From the IMG/VR virus record IMGVR_UViG_3300046557_000378: a stretch of 62,170 bases of DNA; one strand, written 5' to 3'. The notes beneath the pieces are model-generated. The model made no database searches and had not been told where the DNA came from. It saw nothing but the letters and a program-made list of their open reading frames with translations. Positions 4,227-42,454 of the stretch are shown one piece after another (the stretch's first letter is position 1; the number at the start of each line of letters is the position of its first letter). The position numbers and the translations under genes are program-made. This stretch comes from a virus.

Positions 4227-6590
4227 ATGCCCGCAATCCCGTCCGGTATCGCAACCGTCGTCCTCACTGGCCGGTACATCCGCCCGGACGGGACGCCGCT
4301 CTCTGGGTCACTCACATTCACGCCGCCGGCCACGCTGACTATGCCCGGGGCCGACACCATCAGCTCAGGCGCGGCGTCTATCGCGCTCGCCTCTGACGGA
4401 TCGTTCTCCGTCATCCTGATCGCCACTGACCAAGCGGGAATGCAGCCGTCCGACTGGACGTACACCGTCGTCGAGAAGCTCTCGCACGCGACGGGCCGGA
4501 CCTTCCCCATCAAGCTGCCTGAGGCAACGCCCGTCGTCGATCTGGCGGACATCGCGCCGACGGATCCCGACCAAGGTGACTACGTCATCATCACGGGGCC
4601 GGCAGGCAAGGACGGCTCGCAGATATACAGCGGGACGGGCGCCCCCTCCAACTCGCTGGGGGTCGACGGCGATTACTACGTCGACACGACGGTTGACGCA
4701 GTCCGCCTCTTCGGAGCGAAGGCATCCGGCGCCTGGCCGACGCCAGGAGTCCTCTTGAACGGCGTGACGTCCGTCAACGGCGAGACTGGCATCGTCTCTC
4801 TGTCGGCTGCGGACGTGGGCGCGGATGCAGCCGGTACAGCAGCCGCCCTAACGGCCGTCGGCCTCACCGACTGGGTCAACGTAAAGAATGCTTCGTATGG
4901 GGCTGTTGGCGACGGGGTTACCGACGACACGGCCGCGATACAGAGCGCGATCAGCGCTGTTGCGGCAACTGGCGGCGTCGTTTACCTCCCCGCAGGCAAG
5001 TACCTTCTGAACGGCTCCAGTGGCCTCAGTATCCCCACCAGCGCCGTGACCCTCCGCGGAGCGGGAACGGAGGCGTCAAGGATCCTCATCGGATCGAGCT
5101 TCACCGGGTCGTCAGCAATCACCGTAACGGGTGCCAACGCCCAAGTGACGGACCTTAGTGTCAACGGCAGCAGCACGACGACGACCAGCAACCCCGCGGC
5201 ACACGGCATCACTGTGAGTGGCGCCCGACGGCTGAGAGTCTTCAACTGCCAAATGTGGTACCTGAACGGATACGCCGTCCGTGCCCTGGCCACGAGCGGG
5301 AGCAGCACCACCAACCCGCACGGTACCCAGATCTCGAACGTCCGGATCAATCAGTGCGCCGGCGGGCTGTACTTCCTGGGCGACACCACTCAGGGCTACG
5401 CCGTCAACAGCTTCGTCACCGACGTGCATATTCAACAGAGCGGCGCGGCGAGCGGCACGAACGCCAACGCAGATGGCATCCGCATCGAGGATGCGTGGGA
5501 CGTACTACTGGAGAACGTCATTACGTGGCTCCAGGCCGGTACCGGATCGGCGTTCCATGTGATCGGCAACTGTGCCGCAACCTTCGCCAAGAACATCGAC
5601 GCGCTGGGGCCGAACAGTCTCGCCCCGAACGTGCTGGTGGAGGACGGGGCGAACGGAAGCCCGCAGAACGTGCAGATCAGCGGTGGCGTGATCCAGCAAG
5701 GCACCGTGGGAATCAAGATCTCCGGCGGCGCACAGCACGTTCACGTGGACTCCCTCCGGATCATCAACAACAGCGGGCACGGTGCGCAGGTCGACGGATC
5801 GGGCGTCGGCATCTACTTCCACAAGGTGTTCTTCTCGCAGTCGGGCCAGGGCGCTGCCGGCACGAACTACGACATCAACTGGAGTGGGACGGCGACGGGG
5901 CACGTCCTCAACTGCCGCTTCTCATCGCCCGTCGTCGCAACCGGCGTCGCAGGCGTGCAGCAGACGATCAACGTTGCTGCCGGACAGGGCGTCCGTGTCC
6001 TCAACACAGACTTCCAGGGCTCCGGCGCCAGTTCGGCCAACTGGTTCACGAACCTACCGATGGTGGTCACTCGCGTCGACGGCACCAACATGGAGCACAT
6101 TGGCAACCTGGACGTCCGGCTGCCGACCGGTACCCGCGTCAGCCTCCGACCCGTAGCAGCAGGTAACAACGCCCTTGCCATCAACGTGAACGGGGCAGAC
6201 TCCGTTGACCGATTCAGGCTTCTAGGCAGCGGTAACCAGGAGTTCGGCACCGGTGCAGTGGCCCGCGACACCACGTGGGGGCGCCAGGGAACTGCCCAGA
6301 TAGGCAGCCCCGACTCTGACATCATCATCGGCCTCGCAGGAAAGGGGCTGCGGGTGAAGGAGGGCACCAACGCACGCCAGGGGACGGTGACGCTGGTTGC
6401 CGGAGCGGCAACGGTGGCCAACACCTCCATCACGGCGACGTCTCGTGTCCAGCTGACGTCACAGGCGGACGGAGGCACGCCGGGATGGCTTCGAGTGAGT
6501 ACCCGGACGGTGGGGACGTCGTTTGTCATCACCTCGTCCAGCTCCTCCGACACGAGCACCGTGGCGTACTTCATCACGGAGCCCGCGTGA
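4227..6590 (+). CDS. tailspike/tail fiber with right-handed beta-helix (pectate-lyase-superfamily) domain
   Basis: ATG 4227 with GAGGAG RBS (track start 4158 is an Arg-rich extension overlapping the upstream gene); collagen-like GPAGKDG; YGAVGDGVTDDTAAIQSAI...GGVVYLPAGKY motif. Confidence 0.8.
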   Translation: MPAIPSGIATVVLTGRYIRPDGTPLSGSLTFTPPATLTMPGADTISSGAASIALASDGSFSVILIATDQAGMQPSDWTYTVVEKLSHATGRTFPIKLPEATPVVDLADIAPTDPDQGDYVIITGPAGKDGSQIYSGTGAPSNSLGVDGDYYVDTTVDAVRLFGAKASGAWPTPGVLLNGVTSVNGETGIVSLSAADVGADAAGTAAALTAVGLTDWVNVKNASYGAVGDGVTDDTAAIQSAISAVAATGGVVYLPAGKYLLNGSSGLSIPTSAVTLRGAGTEASRILIGSSFTGSSAITVTGANAQVTDLSVNGSSTTTTSNPAAHGITVSGARRLRVFNCQMWYLNGYAVRALATSGSSTTNPHGTQISNVRINQCAGGLYFLGDTTQGYAVNSFVTDVHIQQSGAASGTNANADGIRIEDAWDVLLENVITWLQAGTGSAFHVIGNCAATFAKNIDALGPNSLAPNVLVEDGANGSPQNVQISGGVIQQGTVGIKISGGAQHVHVDSLRIINNSGHGAQVDGSGVGIYFHKVFFSQSGQGAAGTNYDINWSGTATGHVLNCRFSSPVVATGVAGVQQTINVAAGQGVRVLNTDFQGSGASSANWFTNLPMVVTRVDGTNMEHIGNLDVRLPTGTRVSLRPVAAGNNALAINVNGADSVDRFRLLGSGNQEFGTGAVARDTTWGRQGTAQIGSPDSDIIIGLAGKGLRVKEGTNARQGTVTLVAGAATVANTSITATSRVQLTSQADGGTPGWLRVSTRTVGTSFVITSSSSSDTSTVAYFITEPA

Positions 6591-6605: not shown

Positions 6606-6639
6606 CCCGCGTCACATCACCCTCTGATTCCCCCATTAC
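6606..6639 (+). promoter_or_regulatory. phage-specific promoter-like motif, copy 1 (CCCGCGTCACA-N11-TTCCCCCATTAC)
   Basis: One of five near-identical sites; GTCACA 6611-6616 and CATTAC 6634-6639 are 17 nt apart; 31 nt before ATG 6670. Confidence 0.5.
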
Positions 6640-6669
6640 CTGTGTGTCATCACATGGAGGAGGAGACGG

Positions 6670-9230: not shown

Positions 9231-9299
9231 CAAACTAACCCCTTATTTCTAACTCTCTCTAACGCGTTATAGAGAGAAGTGAAAAGAAGGGTTAGTTTG
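9231..9299. repeat. 69-bp AT-rich imperfect palindrome, copy 1 (homologous to 41022-41090)
   Basis: CAAACTAACCCC...ACGCGT...GGGTTAGTTTG read directly; followed by ACGTTTTGG. Confidence 0.9.
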
Positions 9300-9385
9300 A
9301 CGTTTTGGCGCCGGACTGGCCACGGGGGAGGACGAGGTTCGTTGACGGCCTGCCGGGCATGGGGTGGACTCGCCATACTCGGCAG

Positions 9386-10132: not shown

Positions 10133-10166
10133 CCCGCGTCACATCTGCCCCCGCTTCCCCCATAAC
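10133..10166 (+). promoter_or_regulatory. phage-specific promoter-like motif, copy 2
   Basis: CCCGCGTCACA-N11-TTCCCCCATAAC; 39 nt before ATG 10205. Confidence 0.5.
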
Positions 10167-16722: not shown

Positions 16723-16756
16723 CCCGCGTCACATCGACGCTCCATTCCCCCATAAC
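16723..16756 (+). promoter_or_regulatory. phage-specific promoter-like motif, copy 3
   Basis: CCCGCGTCACA-N11-TTCCCCCATAAC; 65 nt before ATG 16821. Confidence 0.5.
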
Positions 16757-28771: not shown

Positions 28772-28805
28772 CCCGCGTCACAACTAGCTCAGATTCCCCC
28801 ATTAC
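28772..28805 (+). promoter_or_regulatory. phage-specific promoter-like motif, copy 4 (upstream of sigma gene)
   Basis: CCCGCGTCACA-N11-TTCCCCCATTAC; 34 nt before ATG 28839. Confidence 0.5.
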
Positions 28806-38807: not shown

Positions 38808-39200
38808 GCCCGCTCGCTGGCTGCCTGTGCAGTTGGCGCGCGGCGGGCGCAGCGGGGGTCTGGGGTAGCTGATGTGAGGTCGGCCGACGCCCCAACCCCC
38901 GCCAGCGTCCGAACTCCTCGTCTCCGGCGTGCCCATCACACACGGCCGCGGACGAGGTGCCGACGTGGTTGGTTTCGCACCTTCCTGGCCACGTCGGAGC
39001 TGGGATCCCGCTCGTCCGTCTGCCGTGACTTGGGCGAGCGGGGTTCCCAGCGCCAGAACTTCCCGTCCCGAGCGATCGGAGGCGGGGCACCGCCCGTCGG
39101 TGGAGTCCCTGTCGCCAGGGACTGCCCGGGGCGGTACAGGAGCCCCACTCGTGCGACGTCCCCCGCGTTGCGTGAGTGGGGCTTCTTCATGATGCTGACA

Positions 39201-39248
39201 TACGCAGGTTCTTCTAGTACGACAACCCGTACACGGGATACCTGCGTA
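39201..39248. other. candidate attP (48-bp imperfect inverted repeat)
   Basis: TACGCAGGT...ACCTGCGTA perfect 9-bp outer arms, inner GTACG/CGTAC symmetry, centre AA; ends 15 nt before int ATG. Confidence 0.45.
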
Positions 39249-39263
39249 GGTATACTCGGACTC

Positions 39264-40826
39264 ATGACAACCCGCGTACTGGGCGCCAGGCGGCTGAGCC
39301 GCGTCAAGGACAACTCGACATCGTTCGAGCGGCAAGGCATAGCCATCGAGACGGTAGCCGCGTCTGTTGGGGGAGAAGTCGTCGCGTGGGCGGACGACCC
39401 TGACGTCAGTGCCGCGAAGGTGGCACCTAAGGACCGTCCGGAACTTGGCCCCTGGTTCGAGCGCCCCGACGAGTTCGACGCTATCGCATGGTGGAGGCTC
39501 GACAGGGCCGTTCGAAGCATGCGGGATATGGCATGGCTTGCAGGGTGGGCGCGCGATAAGAAAAAGCGTTTGATCTTCGCTGAAGGACCCGGCGGGGGAC
39601 GCCTTGAACTCGATATGTCGTCCCCCATGTCAGAGCTGATTCTGATGATTCTGGCCTTCGCCGCTCAGATGGAAGTCCAGGCAATTCAGGAGCGCACGGA
39701 AGGATCTACTGAATACCTCCGCAGCGTCGGCCGATGGAAAGGCGGACGGGTGCCTTTCGGGCGCATGCCGATCCCACATCCGGAGGAAGGCGAAGGATGG
39801 TGGCTGGGACGTCACGACAAAACAGCGAGCATCGTTGACGACATGGTGAAGCTCGTGATCGACGGAACGTCGTACAACGCACTCGCCGCGTGGCTAAACA
39901 GCAAACACCCTGGCGTCACGCCTTCCAATCACCGCCGTTCCCTGGCCACTCCGCCGAAAGAGCCGGACCCCAACGTCCGTTGGAATCCAGGGATGGTGAG
40001 TTCGTTCCTCCGTCAACCGTCGTTGAGGGGGTGGTCGATGATCGGCGACGATCCCGTGCGTGACGAGGAGGGTGAGCCCGTCAGGCTGGGTCCGCCTCTG
40101 ATCGACGATGAGACATGGAGGAGGCTCCAGGCGGAAATGGACACCAGGGAAGGAAACGGGGGCCGCAACAAGAGCGACACGCACCCGCTCCTGGGCGTTG
40201 CCTACTGCGGATCATGCGAAGGCAAGCTGTACCAAGGGTGGATCTCTGCCGGGGAGCGTCGCACAGCCAAGCGGCAGTACCGATGCGCAGCGAAGGCGCA
40301 CGGGCGCATATGCCGTAAGCCCGCGTACGTCACGGCGGATCCGGTGGACGAGTGTGTCGAAGAGGCCTTCCTCGATCAGTTCGGCCGCTTCGAGTTGATC
40401 GAGGTCATCGTCATCCCCGGTGTGGACCGCCGCGACGAGATCAAGGAGTTGGAGGCGGACGTCGAGACCCTCGCCGGGCAACTGGCCAACCTCCGCGGCG
40501 CTGCTGCGGACGCCGTCGGCCGGCAGATACAGGGGCGGTCCGACAAGCTTGCGCGTCTCCAGGAACAACCTGTCATTCCCGCGCGAACGGAGGAGGTGCG
40601 TACAGGCGTGACCTACGGCGACGCATGGCGCCGGGCAAAGGCCGACAGGGACTTGCATGCGTGCCGGAAGATGCTCCGCGATGTCGGGCTCCGTGTGACC
40701 GTTGGAGAGACGTACCGGGGCGCCCGTGACGTTCGCGCAAGGCTCAGTGTGGATGTGGTGACGCCGGATGACGTTGATCTCGCCCAGGATGCCCTTGACG
40801 ACGTGGCGGAGCAGGAGCGCCATTAG
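39264..40826 (+). CDS. int: large serine recombinase (integrase)
   Basis: 520 aa from ATG 39264; N-terminal RLSRVKDNSTSFERQ catalytic-Ser motif, Bxb1-like order; TATACT 39251-39256 suggests a leaderless mRNA; the 130 upstream in-frame codons are Arg-rich and non-coding-like. Confidence 0.85.
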   Translation: MTTRVLGARRLSRVKDNSTSFERQGIAIETVAASVGGEVVAWADDPDVSAAKVAPKDRPELGPWFERPDEFDAIAWWRLDRAVRSMRDMAWLAGWARDKKKRLIFAEGPGGGRLELDMSSPMSELILMILAFAAQMEVQAIQERTEGSTEYLRSVGRWKGGRVPFGRMPIPHPEEGEGWWLGRHDKTASIVDDMVKLVIDGTSYNALAAWLNSKHPGVTPSNHRRSLATPPKEPDPNVRWNPGMVSSFLRQPSLRGWSMIGDDPVRDEEGEPVRLGPPLIDDETWRRLQAEMDTREGNGGRNKSDTHPLLGVAYCGSCEGKLYQGWISAGERRTAKRQYRCAAKAHGRICRKPAYVTADPVDECVEEAFLDQFGRFELIEVIVIPGVDRRDEIKELEADVETLAGQLANLRGAAADAVGRQIQGRSDKLARLQEQPVIPARTEEVRTGVTYGDAWRRAKADRDLHACRKMLRDVGLRVTVGETYRGARDVRARLSVDVVTPDDVDLAQDALDDVAEQERH

Positions 40827-40923
40827 GTTACGGATTCATAACGTCGGAGTAGTGTCATCGCACACCCTTTGGGTATCTCGGTGGCGTTGGCAGCCGTCTC
40901 GTCCACGTCGACCAGCGTCCCCA

Positions 40924-40977
40924 TCATCCACAGGCGTCTGTGGATAACTGCAAAGCGTTACCGGTTTCTGTGGATTC
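40924..40977. other. cluster of three DnaA-box-like 9-mers
   Basis: TCATCCACA (40924-40932, +), TGTGGATAA = TTATCCACA (40939-40947, -), TGTGGATTC (40969-40977, -). Confidence 0.35.
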
Positions 40978-41021
40978 GCAACACTGCGTAGTCACGTGAC
41001 CCGTCGAACGGTCCAAAACGT

Positions 41022-41090
41022 CAAACTAACCCCCTACTTCTAACTCTTCTAATACGCGTTAGAGAGAAGTAGAAAAAGGGGGTTAGTTTG
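41022..41090. repeat. 69-bp AT-rich imperfect palindrome, copy 2
   Basis: About 85% identical to 9231-9299; preceded by CCAAAACGT (reverse complement of the copy 1 3' flank). Confidence 0.9.
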
Positions 41091-41127
41091 CCACTCTGTC
41101 GCACCCCCGCCGGAGGGTGCTACCAAG

Positions 41128-41157
41128 ATCACTACCGCGTCACACTTCCCCCATAAC
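41128..41157 (+). promoter_or_regulatory. phage-specific promoter-like motif, copy 5 (spacer 10 bp shorter)
   Basis: CCGCGTCACA-c-TTCCCCCATAAC; an alternative -35-like ATCACT lies 18 nt upstream of CATAAC. Confidence 0.4.
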
Positions 41158-41355
41158 AGTAGTAGGAGGGGAGGACGTGCGGCCGTCGCGAATGGCGGAC
41201 GGTCCGCTCCCCTCCCTGACGGCCGGCGCCGCTCCTGCGCTCCCCGTACTCTCTCCTCCGGGTTGAGCGCGGTTGAGCGGCCCCGGCTGTCCCAAGACTT
41301 CCTTGCCCGGTGCATGGGACTTCGACCCGCTCGAAGCCCGGAACGGGGGAGGGTA

Positions 41356-41467
41356 GATCACGTAGTGCAGCGGCCAAGCACACCCGAGGGAGTAGGGATC
41401 GAGTCCCGCCGTCTGACGGCAAGTGGTCGCCCCTGGCGTATCGCCGGTTCGAATCCGGTCGTGATCA
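41356..41467 (+). ncRNA. tRNA-like element (acceptor, D and T arms; 60-nt non-canonical core)
   Basis: GATCACG-TA-GTGC-AGCGGCCAA-GCAC ... GCCGG-TTCGAAT-CCGGT-CGTGATC-A. Confidence 0.4.
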
Positions 41468-41646
41468 CTCGCTGTGTGGAGGGTTCGAAAGCGAGCGCGG
41501 ATTGTGAGAGCGCGTGATGCCACGCAGTGGTCATGGTTCCGGGTAAGTCCCCGGCACGCGACGACCAACACCCGGACCTTGTGGGTCCGTGGCGAGTCCA
41601 CTTGCGCCCCGTACGGCGGGGAGGCGGCATACGGACTCACAACCCA

Positions 41647-41671
41647 CCCCGTCCCTTGTGGGCGGGGTTTT
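41647..41671 (+). terminator. intrinsic terminator
   Basis: CCCCGTCCC-ttgt-GGGCGGGG then TTTT. Confidence 0.75.
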
Positions 41672-41745
41672 CGACGTCACCGGAGCCGGACGCGAAGCGG
41701 TGACGCGGTCAGGACTTCGCGCCACTGGCCGCACGGTGACGTCAA

Positions 41746-41819
41746 GCCTCCGTAGCTCAGTTGGCTAGAGCGCTGCTCTCGTAAAGCAGAGGTCGCGCGT
41801 TCGACTCGCGCCGGGGGCT
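41746..41819 (+). tRNA. tRNA-Thr (anticodon CGT)
   Basis: Hand-folded cloverleaf: acceptor GCCTCCG/CGGGGGC, D arm GCTC-AGTTGGCTA-GAGC, anticodon arm CTGCT-CTCGTAA-AGCAG, T arm GCGCG-TTCGACT-CGCGC. Confidence 0.85.
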
Positions 41820-41823
41820 CTCA

Positions 41824-41901
41824 CGGGACGTGGCCAAGTTGGTTCAGGGCGCCCGCTTTGGGAGCGGGAGGGCGAAGGTTCGAGTCGCACCATCCCGACC
41901 A
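41824..41901 (+). tRNA. tRNA-Pro (anticodon TGG) with encoded CCA and aberrant T stem
   Basis: C1-G72, A73, anticodon arm CCCGC-TTTGGGA-GCGGG; T stem GAAGG/CGCAC pairs only at its two ends. Confidence 0.6.
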
Positions 41902-41904
41902 TAA

Positions 41905-42063
41905 CTAGTGTCCCGCCCACCAGGTGAGTGCGGCGGTTGCAACTCCGGTAAGTGCCGACAGGGCTTTCACGGGGATGCGCTCTGCTGTGACGCGGAAGCC
42001 TCCGATGCGGAGCTCGAAGTATGGCGCTGTCTTGGCGGTGATGTCGCGCTGGCCGCTCGTCAT
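41905..42063 (-). CDS. small membrane-anchored protein, paralog of 34169-34345
   Basis: 52 aa from internal ATG of track ORF 41905-42096. Confidence 0.45.
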   Translation of the reverse strand: MTSGQRDITAKTAPYFELRIGGFRVTAERIPVKALSALTGVATAALTWWAGH

Positions 42064-42213
42064 GGTGTGTCCTCCCACCGCTGCACGTGACTGCACGCGA
42101 ACTGTGCCACGAGCTTCAGACGGCCTGGAATCCTCTTAACGAAGAGGGCGACCGGTTGCAAGACTGGGGCACGCCGGGGAAAACTGAAGATTAGATGACT
42201 TTCACCCGAGACG

Positions 42214-42252
42214 CAGCCCCGCCGCGGAGGACGACTCCCGCGTGCGGGGCTG
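42214..42252 (-). terminator. stem-loop downstream of 42260 gene
   Basis: CAGCCCCGC-21 nt-GCGGGGCTG. Confidence 0.5.
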
Positions 42253-42259
42253 AGCTACG

Positions 42260-42454
42260 TCAAGCGGAGTTGGTGCCGCGCGCCCATGCTGCAAGCTCCT
42301 TGATTACCTCGACGACGACACGTTGTCGAGGTTCGGGAAGGAACGGCCAGGCTATCCAGGCAGGCGTGGACAGGGCGACGATGAGCAGGACGGGGAGGAC
42401 GCGGACGGCAGTCAGCAGAGCCTCGGAGACTCCCGGTGGAACGTGCGGAACCAT
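42260..42454 (-). CDS. small membrane protein
   Basis: 64 aa from internal ATG; TM VLPVLLIVALSTPAWIAWPFL. Confidence 0.5.
   Translation of the reverse strand: MVPHVPPGVSEALLTAVRVLPVLLIVALSTPAWIAWPFLPEPRQRVVVEVIKELAAWARGTNSA

Follow-up and report, generated by a model that had tools for sequence, protein, structure and literature searches.

Positions 41128-41671 of IMG/VR virus record IMGVR_UViG_3300046557_000378 lie between a serine integrase gene and the genes for tRNA-Thr and tRNA-Pro, just 3′ of the integrase, and we find that this interval probably forms the head of a transfer RNA (tRNA) operon: a structured leader RNA followed by a tRNA mimic without an anticodon. This degree of confidence applies to the identity, organization, and processing model of the interval taken together. 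The record, 62,170 nucleotides (nt) that were analyzed as a whole and are called the window below, comes from a Samy-like temperate Streptomyces phage. Both the leader and the anticodon-less tRNA-Glu mimic were previously unannotated; the kind of molecule, a tRNA-like noncoding RNA (ncRNA), is already known. A sequence-only reading of the same DNA had suggested a phage ncRNA, or a precursor processed together with the tRNAs. Conserved structure and the lack of a coding frame bear this out, but the interval is a composite of parts and not one 510-nt RNA. From the promoter-like motif to the end of the mimic, the parts are as follows.

41135-41157, plus strand: promoter-like motif, copy 5, consisting of CCGCGTCACA (41135-41144), CTTCCCC, and CATAAC (41152-41157)
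41165-41215, plus strand: helix P1, whose purine-rich 5′ arm GGAGGGGAGG pairs with CCUCCCCUCC; inner hairpin cap GCGAAUGGCG
41218-41291, plus strand: helix P2, a long hairpin with the apical C/U-rich loop UACUCUCUCCUC (41247-41258)
41301-41352, plus strand: helix P3, CUUCC..CCCGG..[GGG-A-CUUCGA-CCCGC-UCGAAG-CCC]..CCGG..GGGAGG
41356-41467, plus strand: tRNA-like gene, 112 nt; 105 bits and E 3e-20 against a covariance model built from relatives
41356-41362 with 41460-41466: its acceptor stem, 7 base pairs (bp), followed by U8-A9
41365-41381: its D arm, GUGC-AGNGGYCWA-GCAC
41383-41390 with 41431-41438: extended 8-bp stem at the position of the anticodon stem
41395-41407: T-loop-like hairpin, after AGUA; GGG-AUCGAGU-CCC or GG-UUCGAGU-CC
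41408-41420: hairpin 2, of varying length; caps GAAA, GAGA, GUAA, UUCG, and others
41421-41430: D-loop-like strand AAGUGGUCGC, with conserved A-A-N-N-G-G-C; AAGUGG in the window
41439-41442: variable loop, 4 nt, UAAC
41443-41459: T arm, GCCGG-UUCGAAU-CCGG
41467: discriminator A; CCA is not encoded

The tRNA-like gene matches, to the base, an element that the sequence-only reading had picked out at 41356-41467. It shares with canonical and phage tRNA-Glu the 7-bp acceptor stem, U8-A9, the D arm, the UAAC variable loop, and the T arm; it differs in having no 7-nt anticodon loop, in an 8-bp stem that leads into a junction of ∼45 nt, and in a 1:72 position that is often unpaired. What takes the place of the anticodon loop is a three-way junction of a T-loop-like hairpin, a capped hairpin, and a D-loop-like strand, so the RNA cannot decode. 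No triplet and no U33 is conserved in the family, and the insert (40-55 nt) is itself conserved. The loop of hairpin 2 varies both in sequence (GNRA, UUCG, and others) and in length, and is therefore not an anticodon. The T loop reads UUCGAAU or UUCAAAU in every member, with variation at position 57 only, and members range from 108 to 121 nt in length. We considered and rejected a canonical decoding tRNA: the cloverleaf helices are present, but there is no 5-bp stem with a 7-nt loop carrying U33 and an anticodon.

The compensatory changes in related phages that the sequence-only reading had named as a check were found in both the leader and this element. In an alignment fitted to the covariance model (19 sequences), 92.8% of cells are paired, and two-sided changes occur at all seven acceptor pairs and all eight pairs of the extended stem. 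Because a model-fitted alignment leans towards the structure, we also give figures for a MAFFT alignment with a hand-drawn structure: 89.4% of cells are paired, against 33-42% when partners are slid; 21 pairs change on both sides, against at most 11 in the controls; and none of 500 shuffles matches. Pairing ranges from 91 to 100% in the three tRNA helices (acceptor, D, and T), and both the acceptor and the T stem covary. The D stem, of 4 bp, is 100% paired and near-invariant, showing a single one-sided C-to-U change in 19 sequences. A pseudoknot between the D loop and the insert (GGCCA with UGGCC) is 81% paired, with zero two-sided changes among 16 sequences, and its geometry in cis is unfavorable. 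The sole hint of such pairing comes from L026 (L numbers denote related sequences), a poorly aligned outlier whose D loop, GGAUU, is complementary to AAUCC in the insert.

The family comprises at least 20 distinct sequences scoring 83-125 bits, plus the divergent L026 at 48 bits. They were collected first with sequence patterns in IMG/VR, GTDB genomes, and JGI metagenomes and then with the covariance model, and come from IMG/VR, GTDB genomes (two Streptomyces and one Glutamicibacter), metagenomes, and the GenBank phage EvePickles. The carrying phages and prophages have Streptomyces, Arthrobacter, and Glutamicibacter as hosts; further copies lie on metagenome contigs. A BLAST search of the element against 50,697 GenBank phage records matched EvePickles only, an Arthrobacter phage in which the copy is intergenic and unannotated, between the capsid maturation protease and scaffold genes. 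There are two sub-types. The Streptomyces sub-type (G1-C72, A73) usually opens a tRNA array, preceded by helix P3; the Arthrobacter sub-type (N1.A72, C73) stands alone, in phages without ARAGORN-detectable tRNA. In EvePickles, L005, L006, L007, and L009 the element is the sole tRNA-shaped gene. Its flanking genes vary (protease and scaffold; HNH and terminase; DNA methyltransferase; phrog_1467 twice), and at the loci where flanks were picked (L002, L006, L040, L007, and L009) its orientation is that of the flanking genes. The outlying L026 copy (6304-6424, minus strand, on Ga0326734_1000198) sits on a contig of lower G+C with 18 tRNA genes, one of them a candidate tRNA-Stop(UUA) suppressor. 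Directly upstream of the element in L045 (4222-4281, plus strand) is a RAGATH-16 match of 21.9 bits (gathering threshold 65.6, E 0.06), probably due to chance.

Outside the family, the best hits of the covariance model are the phages' own tRNA-Glu(UUC) genes, at 58.9 and 57.4 bits; other decoding tRNAs reach at most 41.5 bits. Since these best hits are tRNA-Glu(UUC) genes and share the D arm and the short variable loop, we regard the element as a paralogue of tRNA-Glu. The tRNA-Glu(UUC) genes themselves (L003 7423-7495 and L033 7425-7497, both minus strand; L008 4898-4970, plus strand) have the anticodon loop CCUUCCG, with C33 and C37 in place of the near-universal U33 and purine 37, and their decoding competence is questionable.

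The leader that precedes the element (41163-41355, 193 nt) has a minimum free energy of −115.4 kcal/mol (z = −5.14), and 0 of 200 dinucleotide shuffles is as stable. In the minimum-free-energy fold, helix P1 is exactly the 51-nt hairpin at 41165-41215 that the sequence-only reading had noticed, including its proposed occlusion of a ribosome-binding site (RBS): the Shine-Dalgarno sequence forms the 5′ arm of P1 and pairs with CCUCCCCUCC. Across 19 sequences the inner stem of P1 is 99% paired, with two-sided changes at four of six pairs, and the outer stem has them at five of six; the basal stem of P2 is 98.5% paired, and five of its seven pairs change on both sides. For P1 and P2 together, 95.7% of cells are paired in the 19 distinct leaders, against 40-52% with partners slid by 1-3 columns; 15 pairs show two-sided change, against 3-6 in the controls, and 0 of 500 column shuffles matches. 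RNAalifold, run on the window with L033, L008 (Streptomyces sp. CA-135486), and L016 (S. fulvorobeus), returns the same three helices with 11 compensatory pairs. P3 lies directly 5′ of the tRNA-like gene in the Streptomyces-type phages and has two compensatory pairs in L016 (CUUCAG/CUGAAG); it was found in the window, L003/L033, L008, L016, L060, and L065, and is missing in L059. A tandem of GGTTGAGCG, present twice at 41261-41279, is the 3′ strand of helix P2 and is not kept as a repeat in relatives. The leader has no match in Rfam 15.

A search of IMG/VR with the P2-apex pattern returned 16 contigs: the previously known L003 and 15 new ones. Each of the 15 new P2-core contigs has ARAGORN tRNA genes, and the coordinates that were checked put these just downstream of the leader; tRNA genes follow the leader in all other relatives examined as well. 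P1 and P2 stand before tRNA arrays in 19 distinct related phage or prophage sequences, which makes the unit the opening part of a tRNA operon. The invariance of the apex (CUCCCCG-yACUCUCCU-CCGGG) is partly an ascertainment effect of the search pattern, though it is also seen in Samy, L008, and L016, which were recovered independently. In phiC31, a P2-like hairpin, GCCGGUCACUCCCCUG-AUCUCUCC-CAGGGUUGAGCGACCGGC, ends 5 nt before tRNA-Thr. The C/U-rich P2 loop looks like an anti-Shine-Dalgarno sequence and could in principle pair with complementary sequences of the GGAGG type.

The motif upstream of the leader, CCCGCGTCACA-N12-TTCCCCCATWAC, has four other copies, at ∼6608-6650, 10135-10166, 16725-16756, and 28774-28805, all on the plus strand. 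These four read GTCACA-N17-CATAAC, and copy 5 reads GTCACA-N7-CATAAC. In 19 related leaders CATAAC or CATTAC stands at a constant distance from helix P1; the short version in copy 5 is the conserved one. We infer that copy 5 would act as a phage-specific promoter, with a start at ∼41163-41165. The longer GTCACA-N17-CATAAC would make a weak sigma-70-like pair. An RBS (GGAGG...ATG) lies downstream of three of the four other motif copies, the exception being that at 16725, and at the 10135 copy the RBS falls within the 3′ arm of a hairpin (CUCCUGUGU...ACACAGGAG) in the 5′ untranslated region. To explain the motif, we also sought homologues of the phiC31 sigma-like gp12, repressor, and integrase by tblastn of the window and found none.

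Between the mimic and the end of the operon lie the following features.

41468-41495, plus strand: spacer hairpin, CUCGCU-(16 nt, with GGGUUCGAA)-AGCGAG; not conserved in relatives
41565-41646, plus strand: conserved spacer block with two hairpins
41573-41589, plus strand: hairpin 1 of the spacer block, CGGACC-UUGUG-GGUCCG; recurs before tRNAs in Samy and L008
41594-41638, plus strand: composite hairpin of the spacer block, GAGUCC...[CCCCG-UAC-GGCGGGG]...GGACUC
41647-41671, plus strand: terminator-like hairpin, CCCCGUCCC-UUGU-GGGCGGGG then UUUU; 8-9-bp GC-rich stem with a 4-nt loop
41746-41820, plus strand: tRNA-Thr(CGU), called by ARAGORN; 65.3 bits in Rfam
41824-41901, plus strand: tRNA-Pro(UGG), called by ARAGORN; 38.8 bits in Rfam

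When we re-read 40700-42300, all the helices, repeats, and open reading frames (ORFs) listed in the sequence-only reading were in place, among them GCACCC/GGGTGC at 41101-41120, CTCGCT...AGCGAG at 41468-41495, GGACC-ttgtg-GGTCC at 41574-41588, and CCCCG...CGGGG at 41607-41621. The 3′ part as a whole (41468-41680) folds no better than its shuffles (z = −1.2). Positions 41468-41560 cannot be aligned to any relative; 41565-41671 is ∼97% identical to L065 and, to ∼41640, also to L060, with unalignable flanks. L060 and L065 are close relatives, so there is little covariation and the 97% identity says little about structure. A search of IMG/VR with this conserved block returned L060 and L065 only, plus two chance matches within coding sequence, and neither the Rfam tRNA model nor the family model detected tRNA remnants in 41468-41745.

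The hairpin at 41647-41671 had been called a strong terminator. The hairpin, CCCCGTCCC-TTGT-GGGCGGGG-TTTT, is there, but "strong" does not hold: it has four T's only, and a terminator scan of 40700-42300, which requires five or more T's in 8 and so passes over the hairpin, found none. L065 has an almost identical hairpin, and in L033 it has one compensatory and one wobble change and abuts the 5′ end of tRNA-Thr; standing directly before tRNA-Thr in a relative, it may not be a true transcript end. The 71 nt between the hairpin and tRNA-Thr (41672-41742) carry a 10-bp terminal inverted repeat, GACGTCACCG/CGGTGACGTC. The L065 counterpart of this segment keeps a T arm (GCGGGTTCGAATCCCGT), so the region looks like a gutted tRNA or tRNA-like gene.

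Taken together, these data suggest the following course of events. Transcription would start near 41163 at the phage-specific promoter-like motif. The transcript would first fold into the 193-nt leader with P1-P3, as thermodynamics and covariation show, and then into the 112-nt RNA shaped like tRNA-Glu, whose 8-bp stem and three-way junction in place of the anticodon loop are likewise shown by covariation, in 19 sequences. RNase P recognizes the stack of acceptor stem and T arm. The element keeps all the features that the tRNA-maturation machinery reads, so RNase P would be expected to cut at 41356 and free the leader as a separate structured RNA; trimming of the 3′ end and addition of CCA would then yield a stable tRNA mimic unable to read codons. 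The spacer hairpins and the U4 hairpin would follow, and tRNA-Thr and tRNA-Pro would be expressed by read-through or from an unrecognized promoter. In Samy, whose operon is homologous, the phage's four tRNAs are induced upon prophage activation (PMC11302927).

Several observations weigh against this interpretation. The motif that the sequence-only reading had designated promoter-motif copy 5 does recur four more times, but in copy 5 its two halves lie 1 nt apart, against 12 in the other copies; moreover, the motif does not match the sigma-70 consensus of TTGACA-N16-18-TATAAT-like hexamers, and a generic sigma-70 scan of 40700-42300 gave 0 promoter sites. Transcription might stop at the U4 hairpin (41647-41671), in which case tRNA-Thr and tRNA-Pro would lack a recognized promoter. 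Positions 41468-41646 are conserved in two close relatives only and may partly be junk from tRNA loss. Within the element, 1:72 is unpaired in 10 of 19 members, which could alter processing or recognition, and CCA is encoded in two lineages only. CCA addition and RNase P processing are predicted from the shape of the molecule. We sought a constant protein partner in the flanks and found none. Finally, a hypothetical coding sequence in GenBank, SAMYPH_95 (80 amino acids, L001 3225-3467), overlies the Samy leader. Its record states "not related to a phrog," and it overlaps the covarying helix P2; it is probably a mis-annotated RNA region.

Could the element be debris, a dead tRNA-Glu with an insertion in its anticodon loop, with the rest a spacer left after tRNA loss and no function of its own? 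The window has two decoding tRNAs where relatives have four to eight, part of the spacer cannot be aligned and the 3′ half folds no better than shuffles, and 41672-41742 resembles a gutted tRNA. Yet a pseudogene would not hold its pairing through dozens of compensatory changes across phages of Streptomyces, Arthrobacter, and Glutamicibacter, nor would it be the only tRNA-shaped gene in phages that lack tRNAs; the inserted module retains its T-loop-like hairpin and AAGUGG strand, and the leader is conserved and covarying too. We therefore consider debris very unlikely. An intron-containing pre-tRNA, from which removal of the ∼45-nt insert would produce a decoding tRNA-Glu, is more improbable still. 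In its favor, the D-arm pattern also retrieved archaeal tRNA-Glu/Gln genes with real introns of similar size (L010, L017, L023, L037, L050, and L052), and ARAGORN made a 93-nt "tRNA-Gln" call overlapping the L016 copy. That call is off-register, however, and recurs in no other member. The bases after the stem differ among members (AGUAGGG, CGUAGGG, UAGCAGG, and UUCCGCA), so that no conserved anticodon or U33 can be placed; no bulge-helix-bulge is evident, and a group I intron would have to be far longer than the insert; and no internal part is more conserved in sequence than the insert, contrary to what a spacer removed by splicing would show. To our knowledge, bacteria also lack a tRNA splicing endonuclease.

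A chiefly cis-regulatory role for P1-P2, as a processive antiterminator (like the put RNA of phage HK022) or an attenuator, is unlikely, though less so than the two foregoing accounts, and it is compatible with the tRNA-like gene proposed here. RNA polymerase would then be able to pass the internal hairpin and its U-tract and continue into tRNA-Thr, tRNA-Pro, and farther. Such a role would fit two neighboring stem-loops that begin a few nt from the putative start site and, in 19 phages, keep a constant spacing to the −10-like CATAAC. It would also fit the conserved terminator-like hairpin that, in L033 and L065, lies within the array directly before tRNA-Thr, with no promoter motif copy between hairpin and tRNA-Thr. 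On the other side, the leader resembles no Rfam family, known antiterminator RNAs included; a hairpin with four U's may not terminate; P2 lies at most 35 nt from the first tRNA in phiC31 and L056, the position of an ordinary pre-tRNA leader; and the convergent minus-strand gene after the tRNAs means that long read-through is not obviously needed. The least probable account, which we give hardly any weight, is a small protein, encoded by a 29-codon ORF (41177-41266), by a homologue of SAMYPH_95, or by a 166-codon ORF on the minus strand (41140-41640). As had been reported from the sequence, AGGAGG (41164-41169) stands 7 nt before the GTG at 41177 of the frame ending at 41266, a good Shine-Dalgarno sequence at the right spacing; there is also the GenBank annotation over the Samy leader, and long ORFs occur on both strands, including three overlapping Arg-rich ones in the mechanical ORF list. 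In most relatives, however, the GTG is GAG, GAC, or GCG, and indels of 1-2 nt fall within every candidate frame (CTCTCTCC vs. CTCTCC, GTTG-AGCG vs. GTTGAAGCG, and AACGGGG vs. ACGGGG). The Shine-Dalgarno sequence lies within helix P1; no ORF in 41132-41755 on either strand, nor SAMYPH_95, has a Pfam hit; the minus-strand ORF crosses both the covarying tRNA-like gene and sequence that cannot be aligned between relatives; and spurious long ORFs are expected at ∼65% G+C. A conserved coding frame, which the sequence-only reading had named as the finding that would overturn its proposal, was thus looked for and not found: judged by sequence comparison, the interval is noncoding and no ORF in it is conserved.

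The preferred reading, a leader and an anticodon-less tRNA mimic heading a tRNA operon, can also be compared with known RNA families. The proposed covariance-model check gave, with the 4227 models of Rfam 15 at gathering level, only the two tRNAs in the window. At E ≤ 10, nothing credible was found over 41128-41671 or for the best-scoring member, only chance microRNA and small nucleolar RNA hits, and the tRNA model RF00005 had no hit at 41356-41467. ARAGORN calls tRNA-Thr and tRNA-Pro only in the window and makes no proper call of the element in relatives, the off-register call in L016 being the one overlap. Literature searches returned no described actinophage tRNA-like RNA of this type, no transcript maps for Samy, and no phiC31 promoters.

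Some actinophages encode transfer-messenger RNA (tmRNA), and the element resembles tmRNA in having a tRNA-shaped module of acceptor stem and T arm with other RNA in place of the anticodon arm. tmRNA is 250-400 nt long, with pseudoknots, a tag reading frame, the G3-U70 alanine identity pair, and no D stem. The element was rejected as a tmRNA: it has a D stem, no ORF, and 112 nt, and it draws neither a tmRNA call from ARAGORN nor a hit in Rfam. Pair 3:70 is G-C, C-G, or U-A in 18 of the 19 members and G-U in one. YrlA has a closed acceptor-like helix, and its two termini pair to make the Ro-binding stem. Otherwise YrlA, a partner of Ro60/Rsr (PMC4201824), is similar: a non-decoding ncRNA of ∼100 nt that mimics T arm and D arm and also occurs in phages. 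The ends of the element instead form an open acceptor stem, and neither the window nor the best member matches any Y-RNA family at E ≤ 10; YrlA and Y RNAs were likewise rejected. No rsr gene was noticed nearby, rsr linkage not having been searched systematically. Archaeal intron-bearing pre-tRNA-Glu/Gln, retrieved by the same pattern, agree with the element in D arm, variable loop, and length; they differ in having the anticodon (CUC, UUC, or UUG) beside the stem and unconserved inserts, whereas the insert of the element is conserved and structured.

For the leader, the nearest parallels are in mode of release. In the 3′ETS-leuZ sponge of Escherichia coli and the TMERs of murine gammaherpesvirus 68, tRNA-maturation enzymes use a tRNA or tRNA-like module as their handle and thereby free the structured RNA beside it. 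By analogy the leader may be released by the same mechanism; it has no sequence or structural similarity to either. ROOL and GOLLD are structured phage and prophage ncRNAs of unknown function, ∼500-800 nt long and usually found beside tRNA arrays. Compared with these, the leader is short (193 nt) and of unrelated architecture, and it has no Rfam hit to either.

The usual view is that phage tRNA genes help with codon usage or replace tRNAs that host defenses have cut. Here, a tRNA body is under strong selection without an anticodon and is the sole tRNA-shaped gene in several phages, so its value to the phage cannot be decoding. The near-invariant D arm, T loop, and insert motifs, beside a freely covarying acceptor stem, point to a reader of the tRNA-Glu body and not of its ends. 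The T-loop-like hairpin and the AAGUGG strand may form a second elbow, as the structural model suggests. We tentatively propose that the mimic binds a host protein that reads the core or elbow of tRNA-Glu, as a decoy or a recruiter, with the distal second elbow as a possible effector surface. The fuller scenario, in which a dedicated non-decoding tRNA-Glu mimic of actinobacterial phages, with a second elbow, acts in trans on a host tRNA-recognizing protein and, in Streptomyces phages, RNase P additionally releases the leader as a small RNA from the shared precursor, is slightly more doubtful. If it is true, the mimic may be a decoy against a tRNA-directed defense or toxin, or may capture GluRS, GluTR, or a reader of the tRNA elbow.

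The element is a concrete and readily testable candidate for tRNA mimicry in actinobacterial phage-host conflict, where phage ncRNAs are almost unexplored. The leader marks the heads of tRNA operons in Samy relatives. A reduced version does so in phiC31, a phage whose integrase region serves widely as a genetic tool. Rfam detects neither leader nor element, ARAGORN calls neither correctly, and routine annotation would miss both.

Upstream of the interval, the ORF at 38874-40826 encodes a large serine recombinase in which Pfam recognizes Resolvase, Recombinase, and Zn-ribbon domains. Among GenBank phages, DNA-level similarity is to Streptomyces phage Samy only, which has the same gene order as the window (integrase, gap, tRNA array, HNH, cos); phiC31 has its integrase, then a gap of 437 nt, then tRNA-Thr. 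The tRNA-Pro(UGG) of the window, at 38.8 bits against RF00005 and with three T-stem pairs mismatched, is possibly a weakened tRNA. A small convergent ORF (41905-42063, minus strand; internal start MTSGQRD...) ends 4 nt past tRNA-Pro and has a strong RBS, GGGAGGA-N6-ATG, and no Pfam hit. Since it is convergent, long read-through from the tRNA operon would collide with it. Elsewhere in the window, a perfect T-arm-like sequence, GCGCGG-TTCGAAT-CCGCG, lies in the intergenic segment 31687-31803, where its flanks could pair like an acceptor stem (CCCCGC/GCGGGG); it is called by neither ARAGORN nor the tRNA-like family model.

Between the integrase stop codon and the promoter-like motif, at 41018-41094, lies an AT-rich palindrome of ∼77 nt (CAAACTAACCCCCTA...TAGGGGGTTAGTTTG) in a genome of 65% G+C. 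A second copy is found 32 kilobases away, at 9231-9300. The palindrome is kept in Samy, L033, and L008, where changes in the inner arms preserve it, and it is probably a bidirectional terminator or an operator.

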